Virus record (IMG/VR): IMGVR_UViG_2923302340_000003 | Source: a virus | Taxonomy: Duplodnaviria > Heunggongvirae > Uroviricota > Caudoviricetes | DNA: 11,115 bases | Direction: 5' to 3' (one strand) | In this document: positions 1 to 11,115 of the stretch, in pieces | Numbering within the stretch: position 1 is the first letter of the stretch | Layout: the number at the start of each line of letters is the position of its first letter | Translations under genes and position numbers: made by a program | The notes under the pieces: generated by a model | The model's database searches: none | Told to the model about the DNA's origin: nothing | Seen by the model: the letters and a program-made list of their open reading frames with translations, nothing else

Positions 1-762
1 ATGTGTTGTAAAATCAGTCGAAGCCTAACAAGTGTGAATGACCTTTTAACCATGACGCAAGTGTTCAATGTTTACTGTGATGAGTCCTGCCATTTAGAAA
101 ATGATGGTCAAAAAGCAATGGTGCTCGGGGCTGTTTGGTGTCCTCTCAATAAGAGGTTTGGTATTGCTAATCGAATACGAGAGATAAAGCTCAAACATGG
201 CTTGGACCCACGTTTTGAAGTCAAATGGACTAAGGTTGGGGCTTCTAAAATTGAGTTTTATAAAGATTTGGTGGATTACTTCTTTGATGATGATGATCTT
301 CATTTCCGGGGATTGGTTATTCCTGACAAAACTCAGCTAAAGCATGATGATTTCGATCAAAGTCATGATGACTGGTACTATAAAATGTATTTTGTCATGT
401 TGAAAACTATTTTTGAGCCAGGAAGTCAATATAGAGTCTTTATTGATATAAAAGATACTCTTGGTCATGAGAAAATACTCAAGTTACATGATGTATTATG
501 TAACAATGCATATGATTTCTCTAGGAAAACAATTTCTAATATTAAGAGAATTAATTCTCATGAAGCTGAGCAATTGCAACTTGCTGATTTATTAATAGGT
601 GCCCTTAGTTATATGCATAGAGGTTTGAATGAAAGTAAGCCAAAACTTTTATTAATTAACAGGATAAGAGAAAGGAGCGGCTATAATCTAACCCAAAATA
701 CTTTGCTTCGAGAGTTAAAGTTTAATCTAATGATCTGGCAATCTAATGGGGGATGTCGATGA
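1..762 (+). CDS. DUF3800-like protein, AT-rich accessory gene. ORF is open to the window edge; the likely true start is ATG at 52 (MTQVFNVYCDES...), otherwise the gene is 5'-partial
   Basis: Long ORF in an AT-rich block. A hydrophobic-Y-C-D-E-S motif sits a few residues after the Met at 52, matching my recollection of the conserved N-terminal motif of DUF3800 proteins (not verified by search). Stop TGA at 760-762. No clear Shine-Dalgarno before 52. Confidence 0.6.
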   Translation: MCCKISRSLTSVNDLLTMTQVFNVYCDESCHLENDGQKAMVLGAVWCPLNKRFGIANRIREIKLKHGLDPRFEVKWTKVGASKIEFYKDLVDYFFDDDDLHFRGLVIPDKTQLKHDDFDQSHDDWYYKMYFVMLKTIFEPGSQYRVFIDIKDTLGHEKILKLHDVLCNNAYDFSRKTISNIKRINSHEAEQLQLADLLIGALSYMHRGLNESKPKLLLINRIRERSGYNLTQNTLLRELKFNLMIWQSNGGCR

Positions 763-1244
763 GTCCGGTTTGGCTACCCAAGCAAATTTTATTAGAACAC
801 TATCAAGGTGAGTGGGAGGCCTACTTTGATAGTGTTTATCAAGCATTCCACCGCGATTTCGTTTTATCTAAACCAGTTTTTCGTGGCGTTCGATTAGGAT
901 TGAAACGTCATCCAGAATATGAAGGTAAATCAGCCACATTCTGGCATATGATTAGCACTGGAAATGTAGAAAGTGAGAGAGTGCCGGATATTCGGCGCTG
1001 CGAAAGAATTAGTTGGCCTAAGCCTGTTATAGATAATAGTACCGATACCTGTTTGAAAGTCTGGGCTGAGCCCAAAGGTAAAAATAGACGTATCCACATT
1101 TGGTTTGAGGATGAGGGATATCTGGTGGTTTTAGATGATAGAGGCGATTTTATGCTTCCATGGACAGCGTTTTATATTGAACATAACCATCAACGAAAGA
1201 AATACAATAAGAGATGGGAAAGACACAATCATAACGGTATTTGA
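753..1244 (+). CDS. Hypothetical protein (163 aa), translationally coupled partner of the DUF3800-like gene
   Basis: ATG at 753 overlaps the upstream stop (760-762) by 10 nt. A GGGGG run at 747-751 serves as Shine-Dalgarno. No recognisable catalytic motif. Confidence 0.6.
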   Translation: MSMSPVWLPKQILLEHYQGEWEAYFDSVYQAFHRDFVLSKPVFRGVRLGLKRHPEYEGKSATFWHMISTGNVESERVPDIRRCERISWPKPVIDNSTDTCLKVWAEPKGKNRRIHIWFEDEGYLVVLDDRGDFMLPWTAFYIEHNHQRKKYNKRWERHNHNGI

Positions 1245-1545
1245 TAGTAGGCTGGCCGCGCCCTTCCTAGAAGGACGGGGCCGTAACTCCTTCTACACTT
1301 ACGCTAGAAGCTGGTAGATGAGATAGCCTAACTTTAAGTAAACCTGCCTTGCGAGTCAATTAACATTAGAAAGCGATTATGTAAATGTGGATGCTGACTT
1401 GGCGAAAAATCCTTATAAATCAATAGATAGTAGGTTTATTTTCAACTCATAGTTTTTGACTATTAATAGTATGTTATCTATCTAAAAAAGTTTTCTGTAT
1501 TCATCGCAAAATCAATACTGCTTTAGCATTGTAGTTAGCCATCAG

Positions 1546-1571
1546 TTGCAAAAAGCCTTACCCGTAGGCTT
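1546..1571 (-). terminator. Candidate intrinsic terminator for the small minus-strand ORF
   Basis: AAGCCT (1553-1558) and AGGCTT (1566-1571) form a 6-bp stem with a 7-nt loop. On the minus strand the stem is followed by TTTGCAAC. It lies about 40 nt downstream of the stop at 1611. Confidence 0.35.
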
Positions 1572-1610
1572 AACATTTGGCTTGGCTGTAGTCTTACCGT
1601 AACGCTCCGC

Positions 1611-1790
1611 TCACCGTCGTGGCCTGTCCGGTTTCCGCCACTGATACGGCCTCACATCATCATGCTGGCGGCGTTCCTGTTGCAGCACAACGGAAACAGG
1701 CGCTGAACACCTGTTAATTTTGCTTGCTGTTTGTTTGATTCCGGCAATGCTGCGGATCATCTCCAGCATATCGGCTTCGGTGATGGTCAT
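1611..1790 (-). CDS. Small hypothetical protein (59 aa, MTITEADMLEMIRSIAGIKQ...), absent from the supplied ORF track
   Basis: Hand translation of the minus strand: ATG at 1790-1788, stop TGA at 1613-1611. AAGGTG Shine-Dalgarno lies 8-12 nt upstream (reverse complement of 1798-1803). A hairpin with T-run follows downstream. Confidence 0.35.
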   Translation of the reverse strand: MTITEADMLEMIRSIAGIKQTASKINRCSAPVSVVLQQERRQHDDVRPYQWRKPDRPRR

Positions 1791-1819
1791 GATTTACACC
1801 TTAGGAAATCTTAGGGGGC

Positions 1820-2090
1820 TGGTTGACACTTTCCGGCTTAAGACCTTAATAAATCTTAATATCGCAGGTTGACACACTTGACACTTTTTCGGGAAAAACC
1901 TTAACAAAACTTAACCATCCCTGGCATTTCTAAGCATGGCAACTTGACACTTTTCGCGATTTTTTCGGCTTTTTGACGAGGTAAATCTGGCGCAAAGCCA
2001 GTAACGGCGGGGTTTACAGCGAGGTTGACACTTTTTCGCGTTCAGAGTGTAAAGTGTCAACCTGGCAAGCTGCTCAACTTGACACTTTTT
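1820..2090. repeat. Iteron array 2: seven copies of TTGACACTTTT(T)CG-like repeats (six direct, one inverted), interspersed with CTTAA/CTTAG short repeats
   Basis: TTGACAC at 1823, 1869, 1878, 1944, 2024 and 2079. Inverted copy GTGTCAA at 2054-2060. Most are followed by a T4-5 run and CG. The array sits between the HTH gene end (2095) and the small ORF start (1790). Confidence 0.6.
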
Positions 2091-2094
2091 GATG

Positions 2095-2632
2095 TCATTG
2101 ATGGTCTGATTTTTCCCATTCAGCCAAGGCGTTTAGTCCTGCCTCACTCCATGTGTCCTGTTCATCGGGACAATCGCTGGCAACATAGCATAGTTCACAA
2201 CGCAACATACGAATTGCCAGCCAGGCATTACCCCGCAAATTGTATTGTTCAAAGTAATGCTGCCCGTCGCAATCCTCAAGGCAGATAGCACCACCATCAA
2301 GAAATTGCACTTCCCAGCCTAATTCCCCGGCTGCATTCAGCACACGCTGCCGTATGTCATCGTCCGTTACTGGTGCAGGGATTTTACCGTCTCTGGCCTT
2401 AACTGCTTTCCAGAACTCGCCCCACGTCATTTCCAGCGTTCTTTCTGGCCACATTTCAGAAACTGCGTCTTTTCCCTGTGCTGGTGGGCTGTTCCGCTGC
2501 TCTGTCGCTTCCACATCGATTTTTTTACCGGACATAACCACTTCGCCTTTCTCGATCCAGTCGTAAACTGTCTGGCGGCTTACGCCTTTGTGTTTGGCGT
2601 ATTCAGCTTTACTCATCAACATGTGGCTCACC
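2095..2632 (-). CDS. DNA-binding protein with N-terminal HTH (Nu1/excisionase-like, SKAEYAKHKGVSRQTVYDWIEKGE) and C-terminal Cys cluster (CX3C...CX2C)
   Basis: ORF on the minus strand. GAGGTGA Shine-Dalgarno 5 nt before ATG at 2632. The track's 2661 start is probably an upstream extension. HTH assignment is from motif resemblance only. Confidence 0.6.
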
Positions 2633-2687
2633 TCATGCATATACGATAAAAATAATTTCATGCGGAAAAGGAATGCGTTGTGGATAT

Positions 2688-2712
2688 GGAGGAAAGGGGC
2701 AATAACTGCCCC
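2688..2712 (-). terminator. Candidate intrinsic terminator after gene 2721..2993
   Basis: GGGGCA (2696-2701) and TGCCCC (2707-2712) form a 6-bp perfect stem with a 5-nt loop. On the minus strand it is followed by TTTCC. Confidence 0.4.
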
Positions 2713-2720
2713 TTGTTGAT

Positions 2721-2993
2721 TCAGTTACGCCAGGATGGCTGACTAAGCGTGGTTTTCATTACATCGTTGACGACCTGTTTTACGATTTCTGTGTTGGCTG
2801 TCGTGCTTTCAACATCAACAAAACCATAATCGCCAATTTCCACTGTCAGAGATTCCAGTTTCTTCCCCAGCGCATCAGGCAACTCTCCACTGAACCGGTG
2901 CTGAAGATTTTCCACCAGCAACGCCCTGAATGCCTCGCTGTTCTCTTTTTTCTGCCATAGCTGGCGTTTATCCACTCTGATATTTAATTTCAC
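2721..2993 (-). CDS. Hypothetical protein (90 aa), GTG start
   Basis: GTG start overlaps the TGA stop of the upstream gene in a GTGA arrangement. Strong AAGAGGTGA Shine-Dalgarno immediately upstream. Classic translational coupling. Confidence 0.6.
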   Translation of the reverse strand: MKLNIRVDKRQLWQKKENSEAFRALLVENLQHRFSGELPDALGKKLESLTVEIGDYGFVDVESTTANTEIVKQVVNDVMKTTLSQPSWRN

Positions 2994-3157
2994 AGTCTCA
3001 CCTCTTTAAGTGCCTTATCCATCAGTTGCCGGGCAATAACATGAATCGACGGCGCCACACCAAGCACAGATTTCTGACGCTCTTCGTCCTGGATACGTTG
3101 CAGGGCTTCAATCTGCCTCCGGGAAAGTAAAACTGGCTTTACTCCGTGACCTTTCAT
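2990..3157 (-). CDS. Small hypothetical protein (55 aa, MKGHGVKPVLLSRRQIEALQRIQDEERQK...), possible small regulator
   Basis: ATG at 3157 preceded by GGGAGA Shine-Dalgarno. The track ORF 2990..3226 has an implausible N-terminal extension. Confidence 0.5.
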   Translation of the reverse strand: MKGHGVKPVLLSRRQIEALQRIQDEERQKSVLGVAPSIHVIARQLMDKALKEVRL

Positions 3158-3189
3158 GATTTTTCTCCCGAATAATAACAACCACAACA

Positions 3190-3245
3190 ATTGCACAAAA
3201 TGAAATGATAGCGATAAATATTGCAATTAATGAAATGCAATAAGG
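3190..3245. promoter_or_regulatory. Two direct repeats ATTGCA-N4-ATGAAATG about 34 bp apart in the promoter region of the 55-aa gene; candidate regulator binding sites
   Basis: aattgcaCAAAatgaaatg and attgcaATTAatgaaatg, both read directly from the sequence. Confidence 0.3.
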
Positions 3246-3263
3246 CCGGGAAAAATCCCGGCC
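3229..3263 (-). terminator. Intrinsic terminator-like hairpin just downstream of the PerC-like gene
   Basis: GGCCGGG (3244-3250) and CCCGGCC (3257-3263) form a 7-bp perfect GC stem with a 6-nt loop. On the minus strand it is followed by TTATTGCATTTCATT. Confidence 0.5.
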
Positions 3264-3267
3264 TCCG

Positions 3268-3555
3268 TCACTGACTGCAATTTTTCGATCCAGGATATTT
3301 CCTGAATGCCTTACCATTGGGCTGATGTAATCCCATTCCGGCATGTGCCCGGCTGATGGTTTCGCGCATCTCCCCGAAATTATCCTGCTTTGCTGGTGGG
3401 CGTGCTGCCTTGCGGATACATTCCGCACGGCGCTTTGCCGCCTGTTCCCGTGCCTTGTCACCGTTCGCCAGCATAATGACCTCAGCCCACCGTTCCGCCG
3501 CTCTCCGGTACAGACCACGCGCTTCCAGTGCTTCCGCTTTGCTGTCGTGAATCAT
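3268..3555 (-). CDS. PerC-family-like transcriptional regulator (95 aa)
   Basis: The N-terminal motif AEALEARGLYRRAAERW resembles what I recall of PerC/Pch-type regulators. Start overlaps the stop of the upstream gene (ATGA). Family call is from memory, not searched. Confidence 0.5.
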   Translation of the reverse strand: MIHDSKAEALEARGLYRRAAERWAEVIMLANGDKAREQAAKRRAECIRKAARPPAKQDNFGEMRETISRAHAGMGLHQPNGKAFRKYPGSKNCSQ

Positions 3556-4094
3556 GCGCCTGTTTTCTCCTTTGCTGCCCGGCGCTGACGTTTGCGCTTC
3601 TCATTCAGCGCCACCAGCCGCGTTTCTGCGTCCTGTTGTTCCTGTGGTGTCACCTCGCCGCACGGCTGGCCTTTCAGGTCGTAGCGTACCCCACCAGCCA
3701 TTAAGGCGCGGTAATAGCGCGGACACTGCGCATAAGATGCCAGCGTCGCACGTAATGCCCCTGGCCCGAATGCCAGCCCCCTGACGGCGAGATCCTGCAT
3801 CAGGTCGTCGAATATCCCCACCTTAAGCGGCTTCGGTGCTTCCCGGCTGAATAATTCAGGCCACAACTCAGTGAGGCGGTTAACGCGCCTGCGGTTTTTG
3901 TGCTGGCGTTTGGTCATATGCCGCCACGGTGTCGCCCCTGTGGGCTTCTGCTGCGCTTTCTGGTTACCGGGCATCACTTTATGCGCCGATGTGGTTTTAT
4001 CCTGCTCCTGCGCCGCCTGCGTCGTTTTCTGCGGCGTGCCGTAAATGCCTTTAGGTTTTCTGTTAATGGTCAGCTTAGTCATGCTTTGCCCCAT
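3552..4094 (-). CDS. ProQ/FinO-domain RNA-binding protein with a basic N-terminal extension; true start may be the second ATG at 4082
   Basis: The segment LWPELFSREAPKPLKVGIFDDL...LRATLASYAQCPRYYRALMAGGVRYDLKGQPCGEV aligns by eye with the E. coli ProQ N-terminal domain (FPHCF...RPLKIGIFQDL...RVDLDGNPCGEL). Confidence 0.8.
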   Translation of the reverse strand: MGQSMTKLTINRKPKGIYGTPQKTTQAAQEQDKTTSAHKVMPGNQKAQQKPTGATPWRHMTKRQHKNRRRVNRLTELWPELFSREAPKPLKVGIFDDLMQDLAVRGLAFGPGALRATLASYAQCPRYYRALMAGGVRYDLKGQPCGEVTPQEQQDAETRLVALNEKRKRQRRAAKEKTGA

Positions 4095-4175
4095 CGTTTT
4101 TACTGATTGCTACGTTGCCCAACGGCACTGACACAACATTCTGTTTTCATTTTTAACATTCCTGATTTTTTAATT

Positions 4176-4560
4176 CCTCACCTGCTGCACAGTGAGAATT
4201 TATGAAGTTAATAACAATATGATTTTAAATGTATTTTTAAGTACTCACTTTTTAATCCTTATATATACGCAAAAGTGAGGTAAATAGTTAAGTTTTAGTT
4301 AATATCTTGCATGGTGTGTTTTTTAACCTACCTGTTATTTTATTACCTCATTTCTATTAACTCACCATTCCTCACTTTTGTTCCTCACTTTTTATTATTC
4401 TTGTTCTGCTCCTCAGTCGTTTTCTTTATTGTTGTAATCTGTTGTTTTGCAATGTGTTTTTAACTCCTCACTTTTTGACCTATATACAGGTGAGAAAGTG
4501 AGGAAAACAGGGATGATTTTTAAATATTCCCTGCCCCCTCACTTTTACGCCTCACTTTTT
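4176..4560. repeat. Iteron array 1 (probable replication origin): CCTCACTTTT repeats in an AT-rich region immediately downstream of the replication gene
   Basis: Direct copies at 4244, 4370, 4383, 4466, 4537 and 4550. Inverted copies AAAGTGAGG at 4272-4280 and 4495-4503. Partial copies at 4176, 4346 and 4361. The last copy abuts the rep stop codon. Confidence 0.65.
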
Positions 4561-5971
4561 ACAGTGGGCGCACATCATCACCGTCAATAGCGATTACGCC
4601 GTCACCTTCCAGCTTGTACAGCCAGCGCCGGAAGTTTTTCATCTCATACCCCAGCTTTTTCATGTCATCGCGCAACAACGGAATAGTGCATTTATCTCCG
4701 CGTTGCGTGCGTGAACGGATACAGCCCCATAGTGCGGCGTGATTCTCCGTCTTGTTCCCGGCTTCCTCGATGCGCTCCAGTTCAACTGGCGGACGGGGCT
4801 TATCCTCCAGCACCAACGACGTGATTAACTCCCCGCCTTCATCCTTGAAAAGCTCAACCTCGCGCAAATCGCAAGCCATTTCTTTCAGTTCCTCCGCATC
4901 CTTCATCTTGGTACATGCGATAACCAGGGCTTCACTGCCTGCACCTTCACGGCGTATCCGGTACTCTGCATCCAGTGCTGCACGAAACGCACTGGAACCG
5001 CGCGCACCCTTTGTTTCATCCTTGCCGGAATGGTGAATTACCAGCACTGTAGCGCCTGTACGCCGTTTCAGTTCGTCACATCCATGGACAAATGCCCCCA
5101 TATCCCGCGCATCATTTTCATCGCTGCCACCAAAGCAACGCGCCAGAGTATCCAGAATAATCATGCGTACAGGTTTACCCGTTTCCTGCTCAACCTGTCG
5201 GGCAGCAATAACCATTTCATCAACATCACTCGGTGCGGCCGGAAAAATTGGACGATTTACCAGGTACAGATTTTTCACCTGCTCACTGTTCACCAGTTCC
5301 CATGCCTTGATACGACGAGGAACACCGATCCCCCCCTCACCAACGACATACATCACCGCACCATGTACAACCCTGCGACCTCCCCACGGGATACCGGTAG
5401 CAACATGACACGCCCACGAACACGCAAGGAACGACTTATAAGAACCGCTCGCACCGTATGTGCTACATAGCGAATTAGCCGGAATCACACCCTTAACCAC
5501 ATAGCTAAGCTGTGAATCGTATCCTTCCGATCCAATGCTCATTGGTAGCGTGGTTTTTCGCTGGCTGTATTGCTCGTCAGTAAGCATTTCTTCGCGCTCT
5601 GCCTGTTCGCGGATCCGTTGCAGGTAATCGCGCCAGTTCTCCGGCTCCCGGTCGGTGATGCCTTTGTATAATTTCGCCTCCTGTACGCCAGCCAGTGCCA
5701 GTTTTTCAGCGATAGCATTGATCTGGATTGGTTCGATCTCCCCCGCGAGATAGACACGCGCAAAGCGGCGTTCATCGTCGACAATGCGGATATTCGCCAG
5801 GTCTGCCAGTTGCTTTGGCCCCAGGTAAACAGGTGGTACGTTATCGCCGTGTTTTCGTCCTTCGCTTTCAATCCAGTGTTGAGCATGGGCGTAAGCATCC
5901 GTCCCGGCAAAAATGATTACCTCAGTGAATTTATCCTTCGGCTGATATTTCAAACTCGGTGCGTTTTTCAC
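4559..5971 (-). CDS. Replication protein: N-terminal TOPRIM-like region fused to a RecA-fold (RepA/DnaB-like) ATPase; putative primase/helicase
   Basis: Walker A GASGSYKS and Walker B-like MIILDTL are present. N-terminal acidic motifs (FAGTD, IVDDE) suggest TOPRIM. The start is directly adjacent to the upstream stop. Iterons lie immediately downstream. Confidence 0.8.
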   Translation of the reverse strand: MKNAPSLKYQPKDKFTEVIIFAGTDAYAHAQHWIESEGRKHGDNVPPVYLGPKQLADLANIRIVDDERRFARVYLAGEIEPIQINAIAEKLALAGVQEAKLYKGITDREPENWRDYLQRIREQAEREEMLTDEQYSQRKTTLPMSIGSEGYDSQLSYVVKGVIPANSLCSTYGASGSYKSFLACSWACHVATGIPWGGRRVVHGAVMYVVGEGGIGVPRRIKAWELVNSEQVKNLYLVNRPIFPAAPSDVDEMVIAARQVEQETGKPVRMIILDTLARCFGGSDENDARDMGAFVHGCDELKRRTGATVLVIHHSGKDETKGARGSSAFRAALDAEYRIRREGAGSEALVIACTKMKDAEELKEMACDLREVELFKDEGGELITSLVLEDKPRPPVELERIEEAGNKTENHAALWGCIRSRTQRGDKCTIPLLRDDMKKLGYEMKNFRRWLYKLEGDGVIAIDGDDVRPL

Positions 5972-6258
5972 TTCTTACCTCCCGCAACCAACATTGCCCG
6001 GATTTTTTTAATATTCGTGGCTGCACGTCTTGCCACTGCCTGTTGTTTGTTTTCAACCAGAATAAAATCACGCTCAAACTGACGGCGCGGCATTACGCAG
6101 TCATATTCGTAAGCCTCACGGCGGTAGGTGATATTGCCTGGCGTAACGTGACGAATAACCACTCGTCCCCCACGTCTGGTGTCGCGGTAAATATCGCCGT
6201 GTCTGATTTCAGGCCGAGCGGGGCCGCTGGCAGTAAAGCCAGAATTTTTCTTTTTCAT
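5968..6258 (-). CDS. Hypothetical protein (96 aa), coupled to the replication gene
   Basis: AGGAAA Shine-Dalgarno upstream of ATG at 6258. Its stop is directly adjacent to the rep start codon. Confidence 0.55.
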   Translation of the reverse strand: MKKKNSGFTASGPARPEIRHGDIYRDTRRGGRVVIRHVTPGNITYRREAYEYDCVMPRRQFERDFILVENKQQAVARRAATNIKKIRAMLVAGGKK

Positions 6259-6262
6259 GGTT

Positions 6263-6463
6263 TTATTTTCCTGTCAGCAGTTCCGGTTTTATTTCCGCAC
6301 GAATACAAAGTTCAGAAAAAAATTCAGGAGAACCAACAATCTCATTACTTTTCAGTCGGCATTGTGATTTCACTTTCCCTTTATCCAGGTAAACCAGTAC
6401 GCGTCCGGTGAAATCATCTGGCACACTCAGGGTAATTGTCATTGTTGCTTGCTGATTATCCAT
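6263..6463 (-). CDS. Hypothetical small protein (66 aa) with one copy of an FTG-x-LV...G-x-V-x-S...RL module
   Basis: 8-nt overlap with the upstream gene. Shares a motif with the 121-aa protein encoded at 6456..6821. Confidence 0.55.
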   Translation of the reverse strand: MDNQQATMTITLSVPDDFTGRVLVYLDKGKVKSQCRLKSNEIVGSPEFFSELCIRAEIKPELLTGK

Positions 6464-6821
6464 GATTCACCCCCTGAATAACCTGATAACCGCAACTGGT
6501 CAGCAATTCGATAAATTCCGGCAGTGTGCCGAAACAGCAATCATCACGCATACGTTCGCGGGATACCTCAACGCCGTTTTCGTAGTGACTCACCATGCGT
6601 CCAGTAAAATGCAGATCATCATCGTGATGGCACGTTGACGGCTTAATCAGTCGCGCACGTTCTGCCAGCTCCAGCAATGCTTCAACACTTCCGGCAATTG
6701 CACCATCCGGCAGGCGATAATTACTTACCACGCGTCCATTCTCCACATTGACCAGTAGCTGCCCGGTAAATTTCTCATCAAACTGAATGCTGTTAAGGTC
6801 AGAAATTGACAGGTTATGCAT
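6456..6821 (-). CDS. Hypothetical protein (121 aa) with two tandem copies of the same module (FTGQLLVNVENGRVVSNYRL and FTGRMVSHYENGVEVSRER)
   Basis: Strong AGGAGGTG Shine-Dalgarno 5 nt upstream of ATG at 6821. 8-nt overlaps with both neighbouring genes. Confidence 0.6.
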   Translation of the reverse strand: MHNLSISDLNSIQFDEKFTGQLLVNVENGRVVSNYRLPDGAIAGSVEALLELAERARLIKPSTCHHDDDLHFTGRMVSHYENGVEVSRERMRDDCCFGTLPEFIELLTSCGYQVIQGVNHG

Positions 6822-7179
6822 GGTGCACCTCCTGGCGAATACGGGCGGCGAATACCATCACACAGCCATCAGGAGATTGCTGGCGTGCTTCCTGTTCGCT
6901 GGTGGCCTCGATGTGAATTACGCGCGGTTGTGCCGTGCTCAGGGCGATAAAACGCCAGATAAAATTGTTCTCGCATTTCTGAATAAACAGCGTGTTTTCT
7001 TCGCGCCCTTTCCATGTTGCCGAGATATAGCCCATGTCATTGAGCATCTCGCAGGCATCCACCAGCGTATCAGCGGCTACGTGTACAGTGTTTTTACCGT
7101 CAGCCATGCAATCACGGTGCACCGCCAGGAAGGTGTATATAAATTTAGGGTGAGTTTGGGTATGCTGTGTTCCAGCCAT
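6814..7179 (-). CDS. Hypothetical protein (121 aa, MAGTQHTQTHPKFIYTF...), first gene of the replication operon
   Basis: GGAG Shine-Dalgarno 9-12 nt upstream of ATG at 7179. The track's 335-aa ORF (to 7821) is an artefactual upstream extension that crosses the divergent promoter and the opposite-strand gene. Confidence 0.55.
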   Translation of the reverse strand: MAGTQHTQTHPKFIYTFLAVHRDCMADGKNTVHVAADTLVDACEMLNDMGYISATWKGREENTLFIQKCENNFIWRFIALSTAQPRVIHIEATSEQEARQQSPDGCVMVFAARIRQEVHHA

Positions 7180-7253
7180 AATCGTTACTCCAGTTAACGG
7201 TTTGGTTAGACGCCCTGCATGTGTTGCGAGCACTGCGGGGCGTCGCTCTTTTA

Positions 7254-7305
7254 GGTGTATTTCACCTTTGCTTTTTAATTTACTCACTGGTGAAATACAC
7301 TTCAA
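7254..7305. promoter_or_regulatory. Operator-like perfect 12-bp inverted repeat GTGTATTTCACC-N22-GGTGAAATACAC overlapping a candidate minus-strand sigma70 promoter
   Basis: Left arm 7254-7265, right arm 7288-7299. Candidate minus-strand promoter: -35 TTGAAG (reverse complement of 7299-7304) and -10 TAAATT (reverse complement of 7276-7281) with 17-bp spacing. TATACT at 7331-7336 may be the -10 for the plus-strand gene. Confidence 0.5.
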
Positions 7306-7366
7306 GCCTTTTTTTATCATTTTTTTTGCGTATACTGACATACACCAATTTTTAGGAGATCCAGAA

Positions 7367-7546
7367 ATGGCAACTGGTGCAAAGAACGCAAAATCACAAA
7401 TGACAACTGTCAGAATCCCACATGAAGTAATGGATGATATTGAGCAACTTAAAGAACCTGGCGAAAGTACCGCTGGTTTTTTAGTTACTGCCGCAAAAGG
7501 CGAGATCAAACGCCGCCAGCGTCGCAAGGCCAAAGAGCAGGAGTAG
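7367..7546 (+). CDS. Small protein (59 aa, MATGAKNAKSQMTTVRIPHEVMDDIEQLKEPGE...) divergent from the replication operon; candidate regulator
   Basis: AGGAG Shine-Dalgarno 7-11 nt upstream of ATG at 7367. Basic C-terminal tail. The track ORF 7202..7546 has an implausible N-terminal extension. Confidence 0.5.
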   Translation: MATGAKNAKSQMTTVRIPHEVMDDIEQLKEPGESTAGFLVTAAKGEIKRRQRRKAKEQE

Positions 7547-7767
7547 TTGATCAGCACCGGACGACCAGAAAAAATTGCATCAGTCGCGCCACCAGCAGTA
7601 TTTTTTGCTTTCCGGACAGCGTGGCCAACGGCATTTTGCAGCAAAATATTCTGCATTTCTGGCGTGCTGTAGAAACGGTGATCAGCGCCTTCACATTGAA
7701 CGAACTTGTCGCTAAAATTCACCCACATAGCAAACATCGCGGTGCTGTAGGTAATTCGTTCACAAAG

Positions 7768-7798
7768 GCGCTCCGGCAACGGGGCGCTTTTTCTTTTT
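7768..7798 (+). terminator. Strong rho-independent terminator (plus strand), possibly weakly bidirectional
   Basis: GCGCTCCG (7768-7775) pairs with CGGGGCGC (7780-7787) around a GCAA tetraloop. This is an 8-bp stem with one G-U pair, followed by TTTTTCTTTTT (7788-7798). Confidence 0.7.
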
Positions 7799-7813
7799 GT
7801 AACGGTCAGAGCG

Positions 7814-8614
7814 TTACACATGGCTGTTTTCCTCCATGCGACGGGCTAACCAACGCTGCGAAAGACGAATTAATTCAGCTTTCCGCTGGTGGTAGTCCTG
7901 GCCTAACTCAATCAGCGTGATATTGCTCTGCTCAAGGTAAGAAAGGTGCTCAAGCTGCAACGTGCTCATGTGGTCGCGTGGTTCGCCTGTGATGCCGTTC
8001 GCCTGCGCCCACTGTTTTGCAGTCATGCCACCCAGCACGATACGCGCCAGCATATTGGCTTCCGTGGTGTAGTGGTGCTGGAACGTGTTTTTACCCAGTT
8101 CAGCCCGGTACGCCTCCAGCGCGGCGCACATCGGCTTAAAGTAACTGGCAACGGTGATACGGGCTTTCAGTTCCCGGCGTAACGCTGCGGAACGAACAGG
8201 CGCTACCTTGTGTAGCTCCTCCTCGCATTTGATGAAGTACTGACGAACGGCGCGGCCCTGTTCGGTGCGTTCGACCATCGCCAGTTCTTTCGCCATGTTC
8301 ACGGTAATGATGTACTCAAGAGCTGTTTGCTGGCGAGATTTTGCGCTCACCGGATCGGGTCGGCTCAAATATTCAACAACCTCATAATCCACGCCTTCCG
8401 TGAAGCCGTATTCTTCAATGCGCCCCTTGATCCACGAACGGAAAACGCGACCTACACCTAACGCCTTATGCAACGCTCTGGCGCTAACAATATTGGTTTC
8501 ACACCCGCCAATAATGCCGGAAATAACCGGGATAATTTCGCCGAAATTTTGCAGATTCTGGTTTTCAGGCCGAACGAAGCCCTGCCCCTGTACGGGCGTT
8601 TTTCGCAGTTTCAT
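7814..8614 (-). CDS. Phage antirepressor-like protein (AntA-type N-terminal domain)
   Basis: The N-terminal region SARALHKALGVGRVFRSWIKGRIEEYGFTEGVDYEV resembles the AntA antirepressor domain pattern, recalled from memory. 266-aa ORF. Confidence 0.65.
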   Translation of the reverse strand: MKLRKTPVQGQGFVRPENQNLQNFGEIIPVISGIIGGCETNIVSARALHKALGVGRVFRSWIKGRIEEYGFTEGVDYEVVEYLSRPDPVSAKSRQQTALEYIITVNMAKELAMVERTEQGRAVRQYFIKCEEELHKVAPVRSAALRRELKARITVASYFKPMCAALEAYRAELGKNTFQHHYTTEANMLARIVLGGMTAKQWAQANGITGEPRDHMSTLQLEHLSYLEQSNITLIELGQDYHQRKAELIRLSQRWLARRMEENSHV

Positions 8615-8691
8615 AAAAACTCCTGCTATCGAATTAAGTTACTTTTTATTTGCTGGTGGATAGCTGGGGAAAAAGCCCCGTTGCTGTTTAA

Positions 8692-8919
8692 TCAGGCTGA
8701 TGTGTTTCGGCGTTCTTCCAGCCAGCGATTAATCTCTACCGCATCGAATGCAGTGCTTTTCTCACCCAGTTTGATGGGCTTAGGCATCTTCCCGCTACGC
8801 ACCCAACGATCGAGCGTTGATAAGCTGGTACCCAGCAATTCAGCCAGGCGATAGCGGCGGATATAGCCAGTTGCAGGGATTGCGGTTTGAAGTATTGGTT
8901 GGTTTTTCATATGCCCCAT
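8692..8919 (-). CDS. alpA: AlpA-family phage transcriptional regulator (about 72-75 aa)
   Basis: Motif RYRLAELLGTSLSTLDRWVRSGKMPKPIKLGEKSTAFDAVEINRWL matches the AlpA/Vis-type pattern. The track ORF start at 9003 is an extension. Likely start is ATG at 8919 or 8910. Confidence 0.75.
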   Translation of the reverse strand: MGHMKNQPILQTAIPATGYIRRYRLAELLGTSLSTLDRWVRSGKMPKPIKLGEKSTAFDAVEINRWLEERRNTSA

Positions 8920-9022
8920 TACCTTTGTTGTTGGTTTGTGATTCGTAATAGGGGCATTAAATAACAAATGAAATGATGTGTGTGTGAGTTTTAGAAAAAA
9001 CACTGTGACTTTTCTTATTTCA

Positions 9023-9805
9023 CTATCTAAAACGCTCTCGCCAGCTTTTCCAAGTGTTCTTATCTGGTTGTGGGATTACAATGCCTTTTTGAGCACCTAT
9101 TTGTGCAATTTTTTTATTTAACTTGTTAGGCGGCAAAGATATTATCTCATTGTCTGTTAATCCGGCAATTCTTAATAATCCATATATCATTTTAAATTGA
9201 TGTATTGTTAATCTTGGTAACTTGTGATTTTCTTTTTTTATAGTGTTGTTTATGGAGTAAATTGGAAATCCATTTGTTATTGATTTATAAAGGTTGTCAA
9301 TGTGCTCTCTGGTTATTAATAATGAATCAGGTGTAATCTTAATGTTGCCGCTTGTTTTTGCATGGCATGAAAAAATAAATGTGGGATTCGCAGTGCGACG
9401 TGAAAGCGGTATGGATGTATTCATAGAGATAGTTTTGTTTCTTACTATAGTCTCTTGAATATCAAAAACTCCAGAAACCTTTGCCTCAAAAATAACACCA
9501 TTTTCTTTTATTTCATCACTATATTCATGAATAATTATGCCAAGAGAGGAAATTTCTTTTTTGATGAGAAAAGAAATAAAATCAATATAGTCTTCATCCT
9601 TTGGCCATGTAAAATCACGATAACCAAAATACCCCTCACAGTAAGCATTTTTTATTTTTGTGGCAAAATTAATTCTGTTAATATCCTGCCAATGCCATAA
9701 ATCATCTATTTCACATTCTAAAATTTGAGCTGCTCTATCTAAAGAGCAGAATTCTAATGGAGGTAATTGTTTTTTTTGCCATATTGTTTCATTAATATTT
9801 GTCAT
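9023..9805 (-). CDS. AT-rich orphan hypothetical protein (260 aa) inserted between int and alpA; candidate cargo gene
   Basis: Uninterrupted ORF in a block that is clearly more AT-rich than the flanking int and alpA genes. Asn/Ile/Lys-rich. No recognisable motif. Confidence 0.65.
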   Translation of the reverse strand: MTNINETIWQKKQLPPLEFCSLDRAAQILECEIDDLWHWQDINRINFATKIKNAYCEGYFGYRDFTWPKDEDYIDFISFLIKKEISSLGIIIHEYSDEIKENGVIFEAKVSGVFDIQETIVRNKTISMNTSIPLSRRTANPTFIFSCHAKTSGNIKITPDSLLITREHIDNLYKSITNGFPIYSINNTIKKENHKLPRLTIHQFKMIYGLLRIAGLTDNEIISLPPNKLNKKIAQIGAQKGIVIPQPDKNTWKSWRERFR

Positions 9806-9861
9806 GATTGCACTACCGTTATGAAAAAATATATTCGTTAATGAATTAGCCTTAATGTCTA

Positions 9862-11115
9862 TTATTTATTAGATTGCGTGATGTCAGAACATATCATGTT
9901 TTCTAAATTCACCAGCAAATCAGTCCACTGTGCCAGCGCCGCTTTGCGCTCATCAAAATATTGATGGCGGTTATAAATGCCCTCTACGCCTTTTATGCGG
10001 TGGTTAAGGCATCGTTCAGCAACGATCGGGTCAACTCCCAATGCTGCTAAATGTGTTCGTGCTGTTCGCCGGAAGTCGTGAATTGTAAAGTTGGGGACGT
10101 TCGGCATTTCTGCTCTGACTTTTGCCAATGCAACAGGAAGGGTGCTTTCCTGGATGTGAGGGATCATTCTGTGCTGCATTTTTCTGGCAGGTAATACCCA
10201 TGCGCTATTGCATGAAAATGTGTGCAATTCTCGCAACCATTCTATGGTCGCTGGTGGTAATGGTATGTCGATAGCATCGCCATTTTTAGTTCGTTGTTCT
10301 GGTAGATGCCAAATCGCGCCATCTAAGTCGAATTCATCCCACCTGGCGGCGCATAATTCCATTTTTCTGACACACAATGCTAAGAGCAACTTAAAGGTTA
10401 ATTCGTTCTGGCGGCTGAATCCTTTGGCTTTACGCATGGCCTGAAAAAATTGGATTAATTCGTCACGGTTCAGCCAGCGATCACGAGATAATTCTTTCCC
10501 ACCAGCATCTGATACTTCAAAAGCTGAGCAGGGGTTAACCTCCAAAGCAAGGCGTTTAATACCGTAGTCAAATATTCGACGTGTCCACCGAAGAACGTCA
10601 GTAGCAATTGTTGGAGCGCCTCTATCAACAATGCTTTTAAGCATGGCATCAATATGGCGTGGTTTTACATCTTCAACCTTCATGTGGCCTATGGCAGGAT
10701 TTATGTCTTTATCAATGCGCCTGCGGAGAATATCTGGGTGTTTCCATCGGGGAAGTATTTGCCGTGCAAAGTATTCGGCGGCAAGTTCAGAAACATGCAG
10801 CGCGTTTTTTTCAGCTTCTATTTTTGCCAGTGCTTCGGCTTTACGCTGCTGTTTTTCTGCGGCTACGTCATATCCCAAAGCAACTCGTGCGGAAAGTTCT
10901 TTTGCCAGTTCCCTGGCTTTTGATAACGATAATTCAGAATATGAACCAATAAGCATGGCACGAGATTTTCCCGCCAGTTTATATCGAAACCGCCATGTCG
11001 GGGATCTATCCACCTCTCTATACCGGAGATATAGCCCACCACCATCAGCACGACCTTCGAAATGTTCTCCGGCTTTTATCCATGCGCGGATCTGCATATC
11101 TGTGAGTTTTGGCAT
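9862..11115 (-). CDS. int: P4-type tyrosine integrase (417 aa), apparently full length
   Basis: N-terminus MPKLTDMQIRAW...GGGLYLRY is typical of P4-family integrases. C-terminal catalytic motifs HDFRRTARTHL and EGIYNRHQY (Tyr nucleophile) are present. Confidence 0.9.
   Translation of the reverse strand: MPKLTDMQIRAWIKAGEHFEGRADGGGLYLRYREVDRSPTWRFRYKLAGKSRAMLIGSYSELSLSKARELAKELSARVALGYDVAAEKQQRKAEALAKIEAEKNALHVSELAAEYFARQILPRWKHPDILRRRIDKDINPAIGHMKVEDVKPRHIDAMLKSIVDRGAPTIATDVLRWTRRIFDYGIKRLALEVNPCSAFEVSDAGGKELSRDRWLNRDELIQFFQAMRKAKGFSRQNELTFKLLLALCVRKMELCAARWDEFDLDGAIWHLPEQRTKNGDAIDIPLPPATIEWLRELHTFSCNSAWVLPARKMQHRMIPHIQESTLPVALAKVRAEMPNVPNFTIHDFRRTARTHLAALGVDPIVAERCLNHRIKGVEGIYNRHQYFDERKAALAQWTDLLVNLENMICSDITQSNK

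Follow-up and report, generated by a model that had tools for sequence, protein, structure and literature searches.

An RlfAB-like gene pair with a predicted convergent small RNA at the edge of a satellite-like island of Escherichia coli

The DNA analysed here, 11,115 nucleotides of the IMG/VR virus record IMGVR_UViG_2923302340_000003 (in the following, the window), carries at its left end a cassette of three parts: gene A (52..762, + strand), encoding an RlfA-like DUF3800 protein of 236 amino acids (aa), gene B (759..1244, + strand), encoding its RlfB-like partner of 161 aa, and, converging with gene B on the other strand, a predicted small RNA gene of about 77 nt (1248..1324, - strand). The protein pair is a member of a catalogued, uncharacterised family, to which the rlfAB genes of phage P1 as well as the PADLOC system PDC-M04 belong; apparently new are the small RNA, its universality beside RlfAB, its strand, its promoter and its orphan copies in phages. 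An original prediction, made from the letters of the same DNA, had described two coupled genes as a possible anti-phage module, but missed the gene starts, the size of their overlap, the homology to P1 rlfA/rlfB and the small RNA gene.

The three-part cassette

The window is 100% identical to E. coli CFSAN018748, in which RefSeq annotates a DUF3800 protein at 52-762 and a hypothetical protein (WP_103755426.1) at 759-1244. Two open reading frames (ORFs) on the + strand do fill the block 1-1244, as predicted, but gene A starts at 52, where the RefSeq CDS and the PADLOC profile begin and from where the N-terminus reads MTQVFNVY..., and homologues begin there too; the apparent ATG start at base 1 results from where the window was cut. 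Similarly, an overlap of 10 nt had been claimed for the two genes, and the real one is of 4 nt (an ATGA stop/start), with gene B starting at 759 and not at 753: RefSeq, the start of the PADLOC profile and the homologues agree on this position, and so does the spacing of the Shine-Dalgarno sequence, the GGGGG at 748..752, correctly recognised before, being 6 nt ahead of the ATG at 759 and touching the ATG at 753 with zero spacer. For the operon, a consensus scan detects a promoter-like site 4-33 nt to the left of base 1 (L001 11968-11997).

Homologous loci were retrieved with a profile of protein B, and the resulting 80 species loci represent its best-scoring relatives; 79 of them have room for an upstream gene A, and for the context counts given below these species loci and the Shewanella and Pseudomonas loci were taken together (81 loci). 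Gene A lies directly upstream of gene B, in the same order and on the same strand, in 79 of 79 loci, in agreement with the obligate coupling proposed earlier. Where the start could be assigned (71 homologous loci), the two genes overlap by 4 nt in 30 and by 1 nt in 17 and are set apart by 2 nt in 10, and a purine-rich site of the GGAG type is usual at the same place before B. Since the start and stop codons are within about 4 nt of each other in most loci, translational coupling is a trait of the family. The AT-richness and the strand of the block had been rightly observed as well: its GC content is 37.1%, compared with 47.1% for 1549-11115 (gene A 34.9%, gene B 40.3%; GC at third codon positions, GC3, 0.31 and 0.34 versus 0.49-0.66 in most island genes), and the annotated neighbours are all on the - strand, with the exception of one small gene. 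AT-richness is not exclusive to 1-1244, however, as 9023-9805 has a GC content of 31%. The unit of two genes in 1-1244 stands as far as the proteins are concerned and has to be extended by the small-RNA gene (about 1248-1359, - strand), and comparison with E. coli genomes lets the cargo segment of the island reach from 1 to about 1548.

From its 5' end, the small RNA would consist of hairpin P2 (1286..1322), the linker UUACG and hairpin P1 (1254..1282; not to be confused with phage P1), all on the - strand, both ends of the molecule being predicted. In P2, the strand formed by CUC, an internal loop and UCUAC faces GUAGA, AG and GAG, and the near-invariant, Shine-Dalgarno-like GAAGGAGU (1286-1293) is partly sequestered in this hairpin. 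Hairpin P1 is GC-rich and resembles a terminator, its inner stem being bordered by one unpaired position and one mismatch; the hairpin ends 10 nt from the stop codon of gene B, and in many other loci this stop codon lies within it. A U-run follows hairpin P1 in 40 of 81 cassette loci and in 53 of 80 viral loci. By consensus scan, a promoter-like site was located at 1331..1359 (- strand; L001 13359-13331), composed of a -35 box TTGACT (1359-1354), a 17-nt spacer and a -10 box TAAAGT (1336-1331).

The region after gene B is conserved in four enterobacteria over about 115 nt, far more strongly than the genes, and an exact 17-mer of the element occurs just after B in 17 loci of many genera. The element is common to all 83 aligned loci, phage P1 included. 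A covariance model built from it (R1) matches the window at 1251-1363 with 80 bits and phage P1 with 52 bits, and a scan of 1.47 Mb gave exactly one strong match in every cassette locus that extends beyond B, also in those kept out of model building; on six sister islands without A and B, R1 had zero matches. Hairpin P1 is supported by compensatory changes, 8 of its 10 pairs changing on both sides, and by a covariation score of 0.227, compared with 0.104 in shuffled alignments (none of 500 reached the observed value) and at most 0.12 in slid controls; in 52 phage-only copies, all four Watson-Crick pair types are found at several of its positions. P2 is nearly invariant; pair 48-83 switches from C-G to U-A in six of six cases, the hairpin is reproduced by single-sequence minimum free energy folds, and 99.4% of its cells pair on the - strand. 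A third helix, sought by column covariation, was not found.

Several lines of evidence concern the strand. When the element is read on the + strand, A-C mismatches outnumber G-U pairs (90:19 in cassette loci, 86:13 in phage-only copies), which places the RNA on the strand opposite to A and B. In each of the 13 viral loci with a tRNA gene within 1.5 kb, the tRNA points the same way as the - strand reading; so do the adjacent Rfam DUF3800-VIII RNAs in six of six loci and, in a single locus each, a drum and an abiF RNA, and the flanking genes in phi3T and in a Vibrio phage agree with this reading. Two motifs conserved on the + strand, AAAGTCAAG and TATMG, are the reverse complements of the -35 and -10 boxes. 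The promoter pattern was detected in 35 of 73 elements, with a spacer of 17 nt in 28 of these 35, and in 32 of the 35 the -10 box ends 8-9 nt ahead of CUCAUC, the first conserved bases of the RNA. Helices, compensatory changes, promoter and strand signal are thus all present and point to a structured small RNA gene, whose transcription and ends are predicted from sequence. No start codon follows GAAGGAGU, and for this reason the motif may contact the anti-Shine-Dalgarno sequence of 16S rRNA or a protein rather than start an ORF; short resemblances of the RNA to the 3' end of 16S rRNA are 6-mers only.

Other identities were considered for the element and rejected. A + strand structure in the 3' untranslated region, with a variable "3' domain" and AAAGTCAAG, is at odds with the A-C excess, and the "domain" resolves into the -35/-10 promoter; folded as one + strand RNA, 1245-1548 has a z-score of -0.72, a value that speaks neither for nor against it. 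An alternative register of P2 proposed by RNAalifold fits only via wobble pairs on the + strand, whereas the adopted register pairs to 99.4% on the other. A hammerhead-like core lacks the essential CUGA, with Rfam silent, the search for a C/D-box RNA gave one noise match only, and an integron attC site would require end-to-end pairing in place of the local hairpins present here. A coding extension of B is contradicted by indels that do not come in threes, a tRNA or tmRNA by a negative ARAGORN result, and a simple intrinsic terminator of the operon by a + strand without a U-run.

With the covariance models of Rfam 15, including DUF3800-I to -X, drum, skipping-rope and abiF, window positions 1235-1385 gave no match at E ≤10. 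The Rfam search of locus L049 returned noise only, and the same tool does detect DUF3800-VIII, drum and abiF RNAs in phage loci. The small RNA is likewise absent from the RefSeq, phage P1, phi3T and Vibrio phage annotations examined, and from the papers found. As the comparison was with Rfam models, it may be identical to a DUF3800 motif already published but not included in Rfam (Weinberg et al. 2017).

Copies of the RNA also exist apart from the protein pair. A scan of IMG/VR with the core pattern yielded at least 120 stretches, of which 80 loci were examined; a homologue of B precedes the core in just 15-20 of these, and most of the others can be aligned to the whole length of the model. 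Neither RlfA nor RlfB is nearby in at least 52 distinct phage copies, and many of them lie in or beside phage tRNA arrays. In five IMG/VR contigs (L123, L135, L144, L133, L158), arrays of 10-31 tRNAs, one with a tmRNA, contain the RNA between tRNA genes and on the tRNA strand. Bacillus phages of the phi3T/SPbeta type and Vibrio phages carry unannotated copies. In phi3T (L221 3001-3188) and in five IMG/VR loci (L124, L163, L164, L166, L169), a DUF3800-VIII RNA lies about 60 nt downstream of the RNA, and a drum RNA or an abiF RNA is adjacent in one other phage locus each (L159, L113). No gene for an RlfA-type DUF3800 protein or for AbiF was recognisable near these tandem-RNA loci; phages therefore carry sets of small RNAs that accompany Abi-type genes in bacteria. 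One further IMG/VR record (L107, IMGVR_UViG_2617271084_000003, 18.8 kb) contains an RNA element scoring as that of the window (80.3 bits, 113 nt) and is probably the same satellite-like island, binned as virus.

Proteins A and B and their genomic neighbourhoods

The membership of protein A in DUF3800, suggested earlier from a hydrophobic-YCDES motif, is confirmed by a profile search with PF12686 (48 bits versus a cutoff of 21, E 2.8e-12, positions 1-148/149), and the motif itself, found as FNVYCDESCH, is invariant among homologues. Across 32 homologues, D10 and E11 of YCDES, D132, D135 and Q176-L-A-D179 are invariant, so that both hallmarks of DUF3800, the N-terminal DE motif and the C-terminal QxxD, are kept. 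In a fold test, protein A was of the RNase HII/H2 type, its best matches being RNase HII/H2 and not PIWI, and published predictions also place DUF3800 in an RNase H2-like fold. Neither Pfam, which gives DUF3800 only, nor a profile search of PDB sequences produced an RNase H match at the sequence level; protein A is for this reason not filed as an RNase HII, though it may work alike. Judged from the modelled fold and the intact acidic active-site residues, it is probably a metal-dependent nuclease. Around the DE motif (residues 9-30, window 76-141), the clade of protein A has four further invariant residues, C9, C13, H14 and C30, which may form a metal (zinc) site beside the active site; to our knowledge, this set is no general trait of DUF3800. 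The confidence of the model (predicted local distance difference test, pLDDT) drops to 65 at residues 11-20.

For protein B, the absence of a recognisable motif reported earlier can be confirmed: it belongs to no Pfam or NCBIfam family, and single-sequence and profile searches of Pfam, NCBIfam and PDB sequences gave no usable match. Still, it is no orphan, as it belongs to a family of stand-alone proteins of about 160 aa with 1604 clusters at 50% identity; longer relatives showed no recognisable extra domain. Across 131 diverse relatives H63 is invariant and R74 and R80 are near-invariant, as are F61, W86, W102, Y121, L125 and T136. The AlphaFold2 model (pLDDT 85) finds weak matches solely to colicin D, contact-dependent inhibition (CDI) and RelE/HigB-type RNases, that is, to BECR-fold toxins. 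Given the invariant His and the conserved Arg residues, protein B is possibly an RNA-binding protein or an RNase.

Both proteins match the PADLOC system PDC-M04 near full length and as adjacent overlapping genes (PDC-M04A E 8e-98 for A, PDC-M04B E 1e-73 for B), and "candidate", the word already used for their anti-phage function, remains apt: PDC systems, which are unvalidated, were nominated because BREX, DISARM or Type I restriction-modification loci enclose them (Payne et al. 2024), and in the literature on PDC-M04 and the protein accessions no functional study was found. The closest named relatives are those of phage P1, with 55% identity of A to RlfA (E 7e-95) and 37% of B to RlfB (E 1e-35); B also matches RapB of P7, and P1 RlfA and RlfB themselves match PDC-M04. 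In P1, the abutting rlfAB genes are situated directly after repL/oriL, behind a C1 operator, and are co-induced with the early lytic replication genes; plating of P1 is not reduced by knock-down of rlfA or rlfB, and in some P1-like plasmids other genes replace the pair.

Of the 81 context loci, 37 have HsdS immediately upstream in the same orientation, frequently overlapping by 4 nt, and 49 have HsdM within 10 kb; if only the 64 loci whose upstream sequence extends over at least 5 kb are counted, HsdM is present in 47. HsdR occurs up- or downstream of the pair and GmrSD or Mrr downstream in some loci; genes for Type III Res, DRT1, Mrr, GmrSD, TIR, SEFIR, Fic and Shedu are further neighbours. 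Defence contexts thus prevail in the neighbourhoods of homologues, which the original prediction had singled out for a survey, and core-genome contexts do not. These restriction-modification frequencies are valid for this clade only, because the 80 loci are the best-scoring relatives. In two species (L035 5890-8544, L065 2872-5646), gene A is directly preceded by the gene of a Type III restriction enzyme (Res), which shows that Type III systems, too, can have the cassette attached. Three Pseudomonas loci (L006, L033, L045, approximately 5300-9300) contain a split DRT type 1 system, reverse transcriptase plus nitrilase, between hsdS and A-B (PADLOC Drt1a, E 1e-194 to 1e-223), an operon-like string of three defence modules in which all genes overlap by 4 nt. 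Taken together, the cassette is mobile accessory cargo, carried by a satellite-like island here and by P1-type phage-plasmids elsewhere, and most often co-oriented after hsdS.

The island and its other cargo

The window represents an 11.3-kb island between dinD and yicC, which encodes an integrase, a helix-turn-helix (HTH) regulator, an antirepressor, an Icd-like protein, a RepA-family helicase with iterons, and ProQ/FinO and PerC-like proteins. It is bounded by an imperfect att-like repeat, TGTTGGGTACACTCTTGTGTACAC, spanning 11.3 kb, one copy of which lies 95-118 nt left of base 1. An integrase, an AlpA-type regulator, a replication module, att repeats and a size of about 10-15 kb are the features of satellites and of islands resembling phage-inducible chromosomal islands (PICI), and the integrase, HTH regulator, RepA-family helicase with iterons, repeat and size found here correspond to them; judged by its gene content, the island appears satellite-like. 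The cassette is located immediately inside the dinD-side repeat. Its A-B pair is present in 3 of 5426 complete E. coli genomes, and the adjoining backbone from 1549 onwards is common to 86 other E. coli genomes. That the cassette occupies a variable periphery, as had been supposed, is borne out by sister islands, whose slot is empty in ETEC1716 (at the same dinD site) and differently filled in others, with a gene for an Orc1/Cdc6-like ATPase in JNU and a DUF4747 gene pair in three strains.

The two kinds of slot occupant (L091 4623-5822; L092 4238-5730), namely the Orc1/Cdc6-family ATPase, with a weak match to PADLOC PDC-S59, and the DUF4747 protein with its 199-aa partner, which have zero PADLOC matches, are further cargo candidates. 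In Yersinia, the A-B pair is likewise placed at the end of an island, which bears a primase, and at the Kosakonia locus int-alpA and the C4 and isrK RNAs lie 7-10 kb from the pair. In Shewanella oneidensis MR-1 (L002 1776-16356), A and B follow hsdR-SoFic-hsdM-hsdS in an island that also abuts yicC-rph-pyrE, the same chromosomal neighbourhood in a distant genus; the truncated integrase of this island is 35% identical to that of the window.

Within the window, the gene at 9023-9805 (- strand; WP_001529476.1, hypothetical, 260 aa, 31% GC, GC3 0.24) between the integrase and the HTH regulator has no PADLOC match and may represent further cargo, or a regulator, at the edge next to the integrase. 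The AT-rich gap at 4236-4560, upstream of the RepA-family helicase gene, contains four iteron-like direct repeats TTTAACTCCTCACTTTTT and a 25-nt pair, and is probably the replication origin of the island; an inverted repeat in the same gap (4465-4504) is the source of a spurious mir-4436 match. Further repeats at 1874-2089, three of CAACTTGACACTTTT and two of TTGACACTTTTTCG, precede a gene of 188 aa at 2095-2661 and may be operator or promoter repeats. A mechanically called ORF of 335 aa at 6814-7821 (- strand) is probably not a gene, as RefSeq has an Icd-like gene at 6814-7179 and, on the + strand, YlcI/YnfO at 7367-7546 instead. The AntA/AntB-type antirepressor at 7814-8614 (- strand) shows a partial match to PADLOC PDC-S22 (E 7e-10, residues 172-255).

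Possible roles and comparison with known systems

We lean towards regarding the cassette as a toxin-antitoxin-like abortive-infection or inter-element conflict module, and would give a role in defence or conflict somewhat better than even chances. The RlfA-like nuclease, the RlfB-like partner and the convergent small RNA with its own promoter would then form one system, in which the RNA would hold A and/or B in check, either bound to them in a type III-like manner or paired to the rlfAB mRNA at its 3' end; infection would upset this balance, and nuclease activity would be freed against RNA or RNA-DNA hybrids. The orphan RNA copies of phages would serve as antidotes. Phages are known to escape ToxIN via a mimic of its RNA antitoxin. 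The specific RNA-antitoxin mechanism is proposed tentatively and may well turn out otherwise.

Several points speak against such a module. No phenotype is on record, and the PDC systems are explicitly unvalidated; the pair in P1 is controlled by C1 and induced in the lytic cycle, not the usual behaviour of a defence that a prophage expresses. A single copy of the RNA is present, convergent and downstream, whereas the classical type III antitoxin is a tandem repeat located upstream, and its transcription and ends are predicted. The GAAGGAGU core together with the copies in phages of Bacillus, Vibrio and others could reflect a general role of the RNA, for example a ribosomal one, unrelated to RlfAB. 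Finally, the frequency of restriction-modification neighbours comes from best-scoring relatives, and the fold matches that would make B an RNase are weak.

The P1 name, "replication-linked function", suggests a different role, in which A, assisted by B, would clear RNA primers or R-loops as an accessory of replication or nucleic-acid processing in mobile elements, with the RNA as primer, regulator or substrate. It would fit the location of the P1 pair after repL/oriL and its co-induction with early lytic replication genes, the PHROGs label of the RlfB family ("replication protein"), the RNase H2-like fold of A, and the replication modules which this island and the Yersinia island each possess. 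However, the name in P1 was derived from position only, knock-down of rlfA or rlfB does not lower P1 plating, most copies of the clade reside in chromosomal restriction-modification operons with no replicon nearby, and sister islands replicate without the cassette; we consider a replication accessory improbable. Another alternative is a pure addiction module, which would stabilise islands, phage-plasmids and restriction-modification operons by post-segregational killing, with the RNA as labile antitoxin and no direct anti-phage function: its carriers are plasmid-like P1 elements and islands, sequence conservation is high, and the three-part layout, in which a convergent RNA overlaps the 3' end, is known from some type I systems. 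Conflict between phage and host better explains both the position inside defence operons and the orphan RNAs in lytic-type phages with tRNA arrays, and an exclusive addiction function has, in our estimation, an equally small chance; as addiction and defence roles often coexist, it overlaps with the conflict module favoured here. Very unlikely is an RNA-guided or RNA-scaffolded nuclease, with the RNA loaded into an RNase H-fold protein as in Argonaute PIWI or RuvC-type enzymes to direct the cleavage of matching nucleic acid: what is transcribed hardly varies from taxon to taxon and lacks a variable guide segment, the variable stretch being the promoter spacer, and the folds matching A best are RNase HII/H2 rather than PIWI.

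The pair spans the classic model phage P1, satellites of E. coli and restriction-modification operons of many phyla, and, as the RNA gene is universal beside it, the way in which the system is cloned and tested should change: a two-gene construct ending at 1244 omits the RNA and could be toxic or inactive. Three loose ends are joined here, namely the "replication-linked" genes of P1, the unexplained association of structured RNAs with DUF3800 genes, and the finding of RNAs of this kind within tRNA arrays of phages; jointly, they suggest an RNA-antidote layer in the conflict between phage and host, which is testable in E. coli with P1. In its widest form, which we regard as possible though doubtful, RlfAB/PDC-M04 would be a widespread tripartite defence, with the small RNA as antitoxin or regulator, that phages from several phyla counter by arrays of orphan antidote RNAs. 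No firmer is the extension that these arrays (this RNA, DUF3800-VIII, drum and abiF), often accompanied by tRNA arrays, would also counter related DUF3800 and AbiF systems. If true, a function would be at hand for P1 rlfA/rlfB and for orphan RNA motifs unexplained since 2017.

Among known systems, the anticodon nuclease PrrC also resides in hsd operons, and B is weakly fold-like to tRNA-cleaving toxins; PrrC is unrelated in sequence, though, the copy in the window has no hsd neighbours, and a guard function is speculation. DUF3800 proteins are accessory modules of type VII retrons and accompany Cas12a2/a3 and Cas13 loci. With type VII retrons, the cassette shares an RNase H2-like DUF3800 protein and a dedicated non-coding RNA in a defence-type setting, but the window and most loci of the family lack a reverse transcriptase, the partner is RlfB, and the retron DUF3800 is without the Q of QxxD, which protein A keeps; the reverse transcriptase genes beside A-B in Pseudomonas belong to DRT1, a separate system and not a retron. 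As regards type I toxin-antitoxin systems, the convergent geometry of the RNA allows a 3' overlap, whereas neither A (236 aa) nor B (161 aa), both soluble, is a small hydrophobic peptide. The type III systems, in which the toxin is an endoRNase, differ by the tandem upstream repeat discussed above, and at most their logic may be common to both. AbiF and its RNA come nearer, in that a conserved structured RNA accompanies a protein of the defence type, and orphan copies of this RNA occur in phages too; RCd22, an RNA of the abiF motif, acts as a type III-like antitoxin and neutralises AbiF by binding it directly. The proteins of AbiF and ToxIN are unrelated to A and B, and the system of the window has two of them.

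DUF3800 genes are associated with at least 11 unrelated structured RNAs of unexplained role (Weinberg et al. 2017). The DUF3800 RNA motifs I-XI, drum and skipping-rope resemble the RNA described here as opposite-strand structured RNAs beside a DUF3800 gene, with a terminator-like hairpin at the 3' end, yet it matches none of their Rfam 15 models at E 10. PDC-M04 comprises the same protein pair, and for this family embedding in Type I restriction-modification loci was recovered independently; its definition covers two proteins, with the RNA gene not included, and the copy in the window is solo, with no hsd genes nearby. The closest counterpart remains rlfA-rlfB of P1 (rapB in P7). The P1 copy follows repL in a phage-plasmid and that of the window is found in the chromosome, where it lies at one edge of a satellite-like island, and the core of the P1 RNA has diverged, with GAAAGAGC in place of GAAGGAGU; both have the same two protein families in the same order, as abutting genes with the RNA after rlfB, and both are dispensable mobile cargo.

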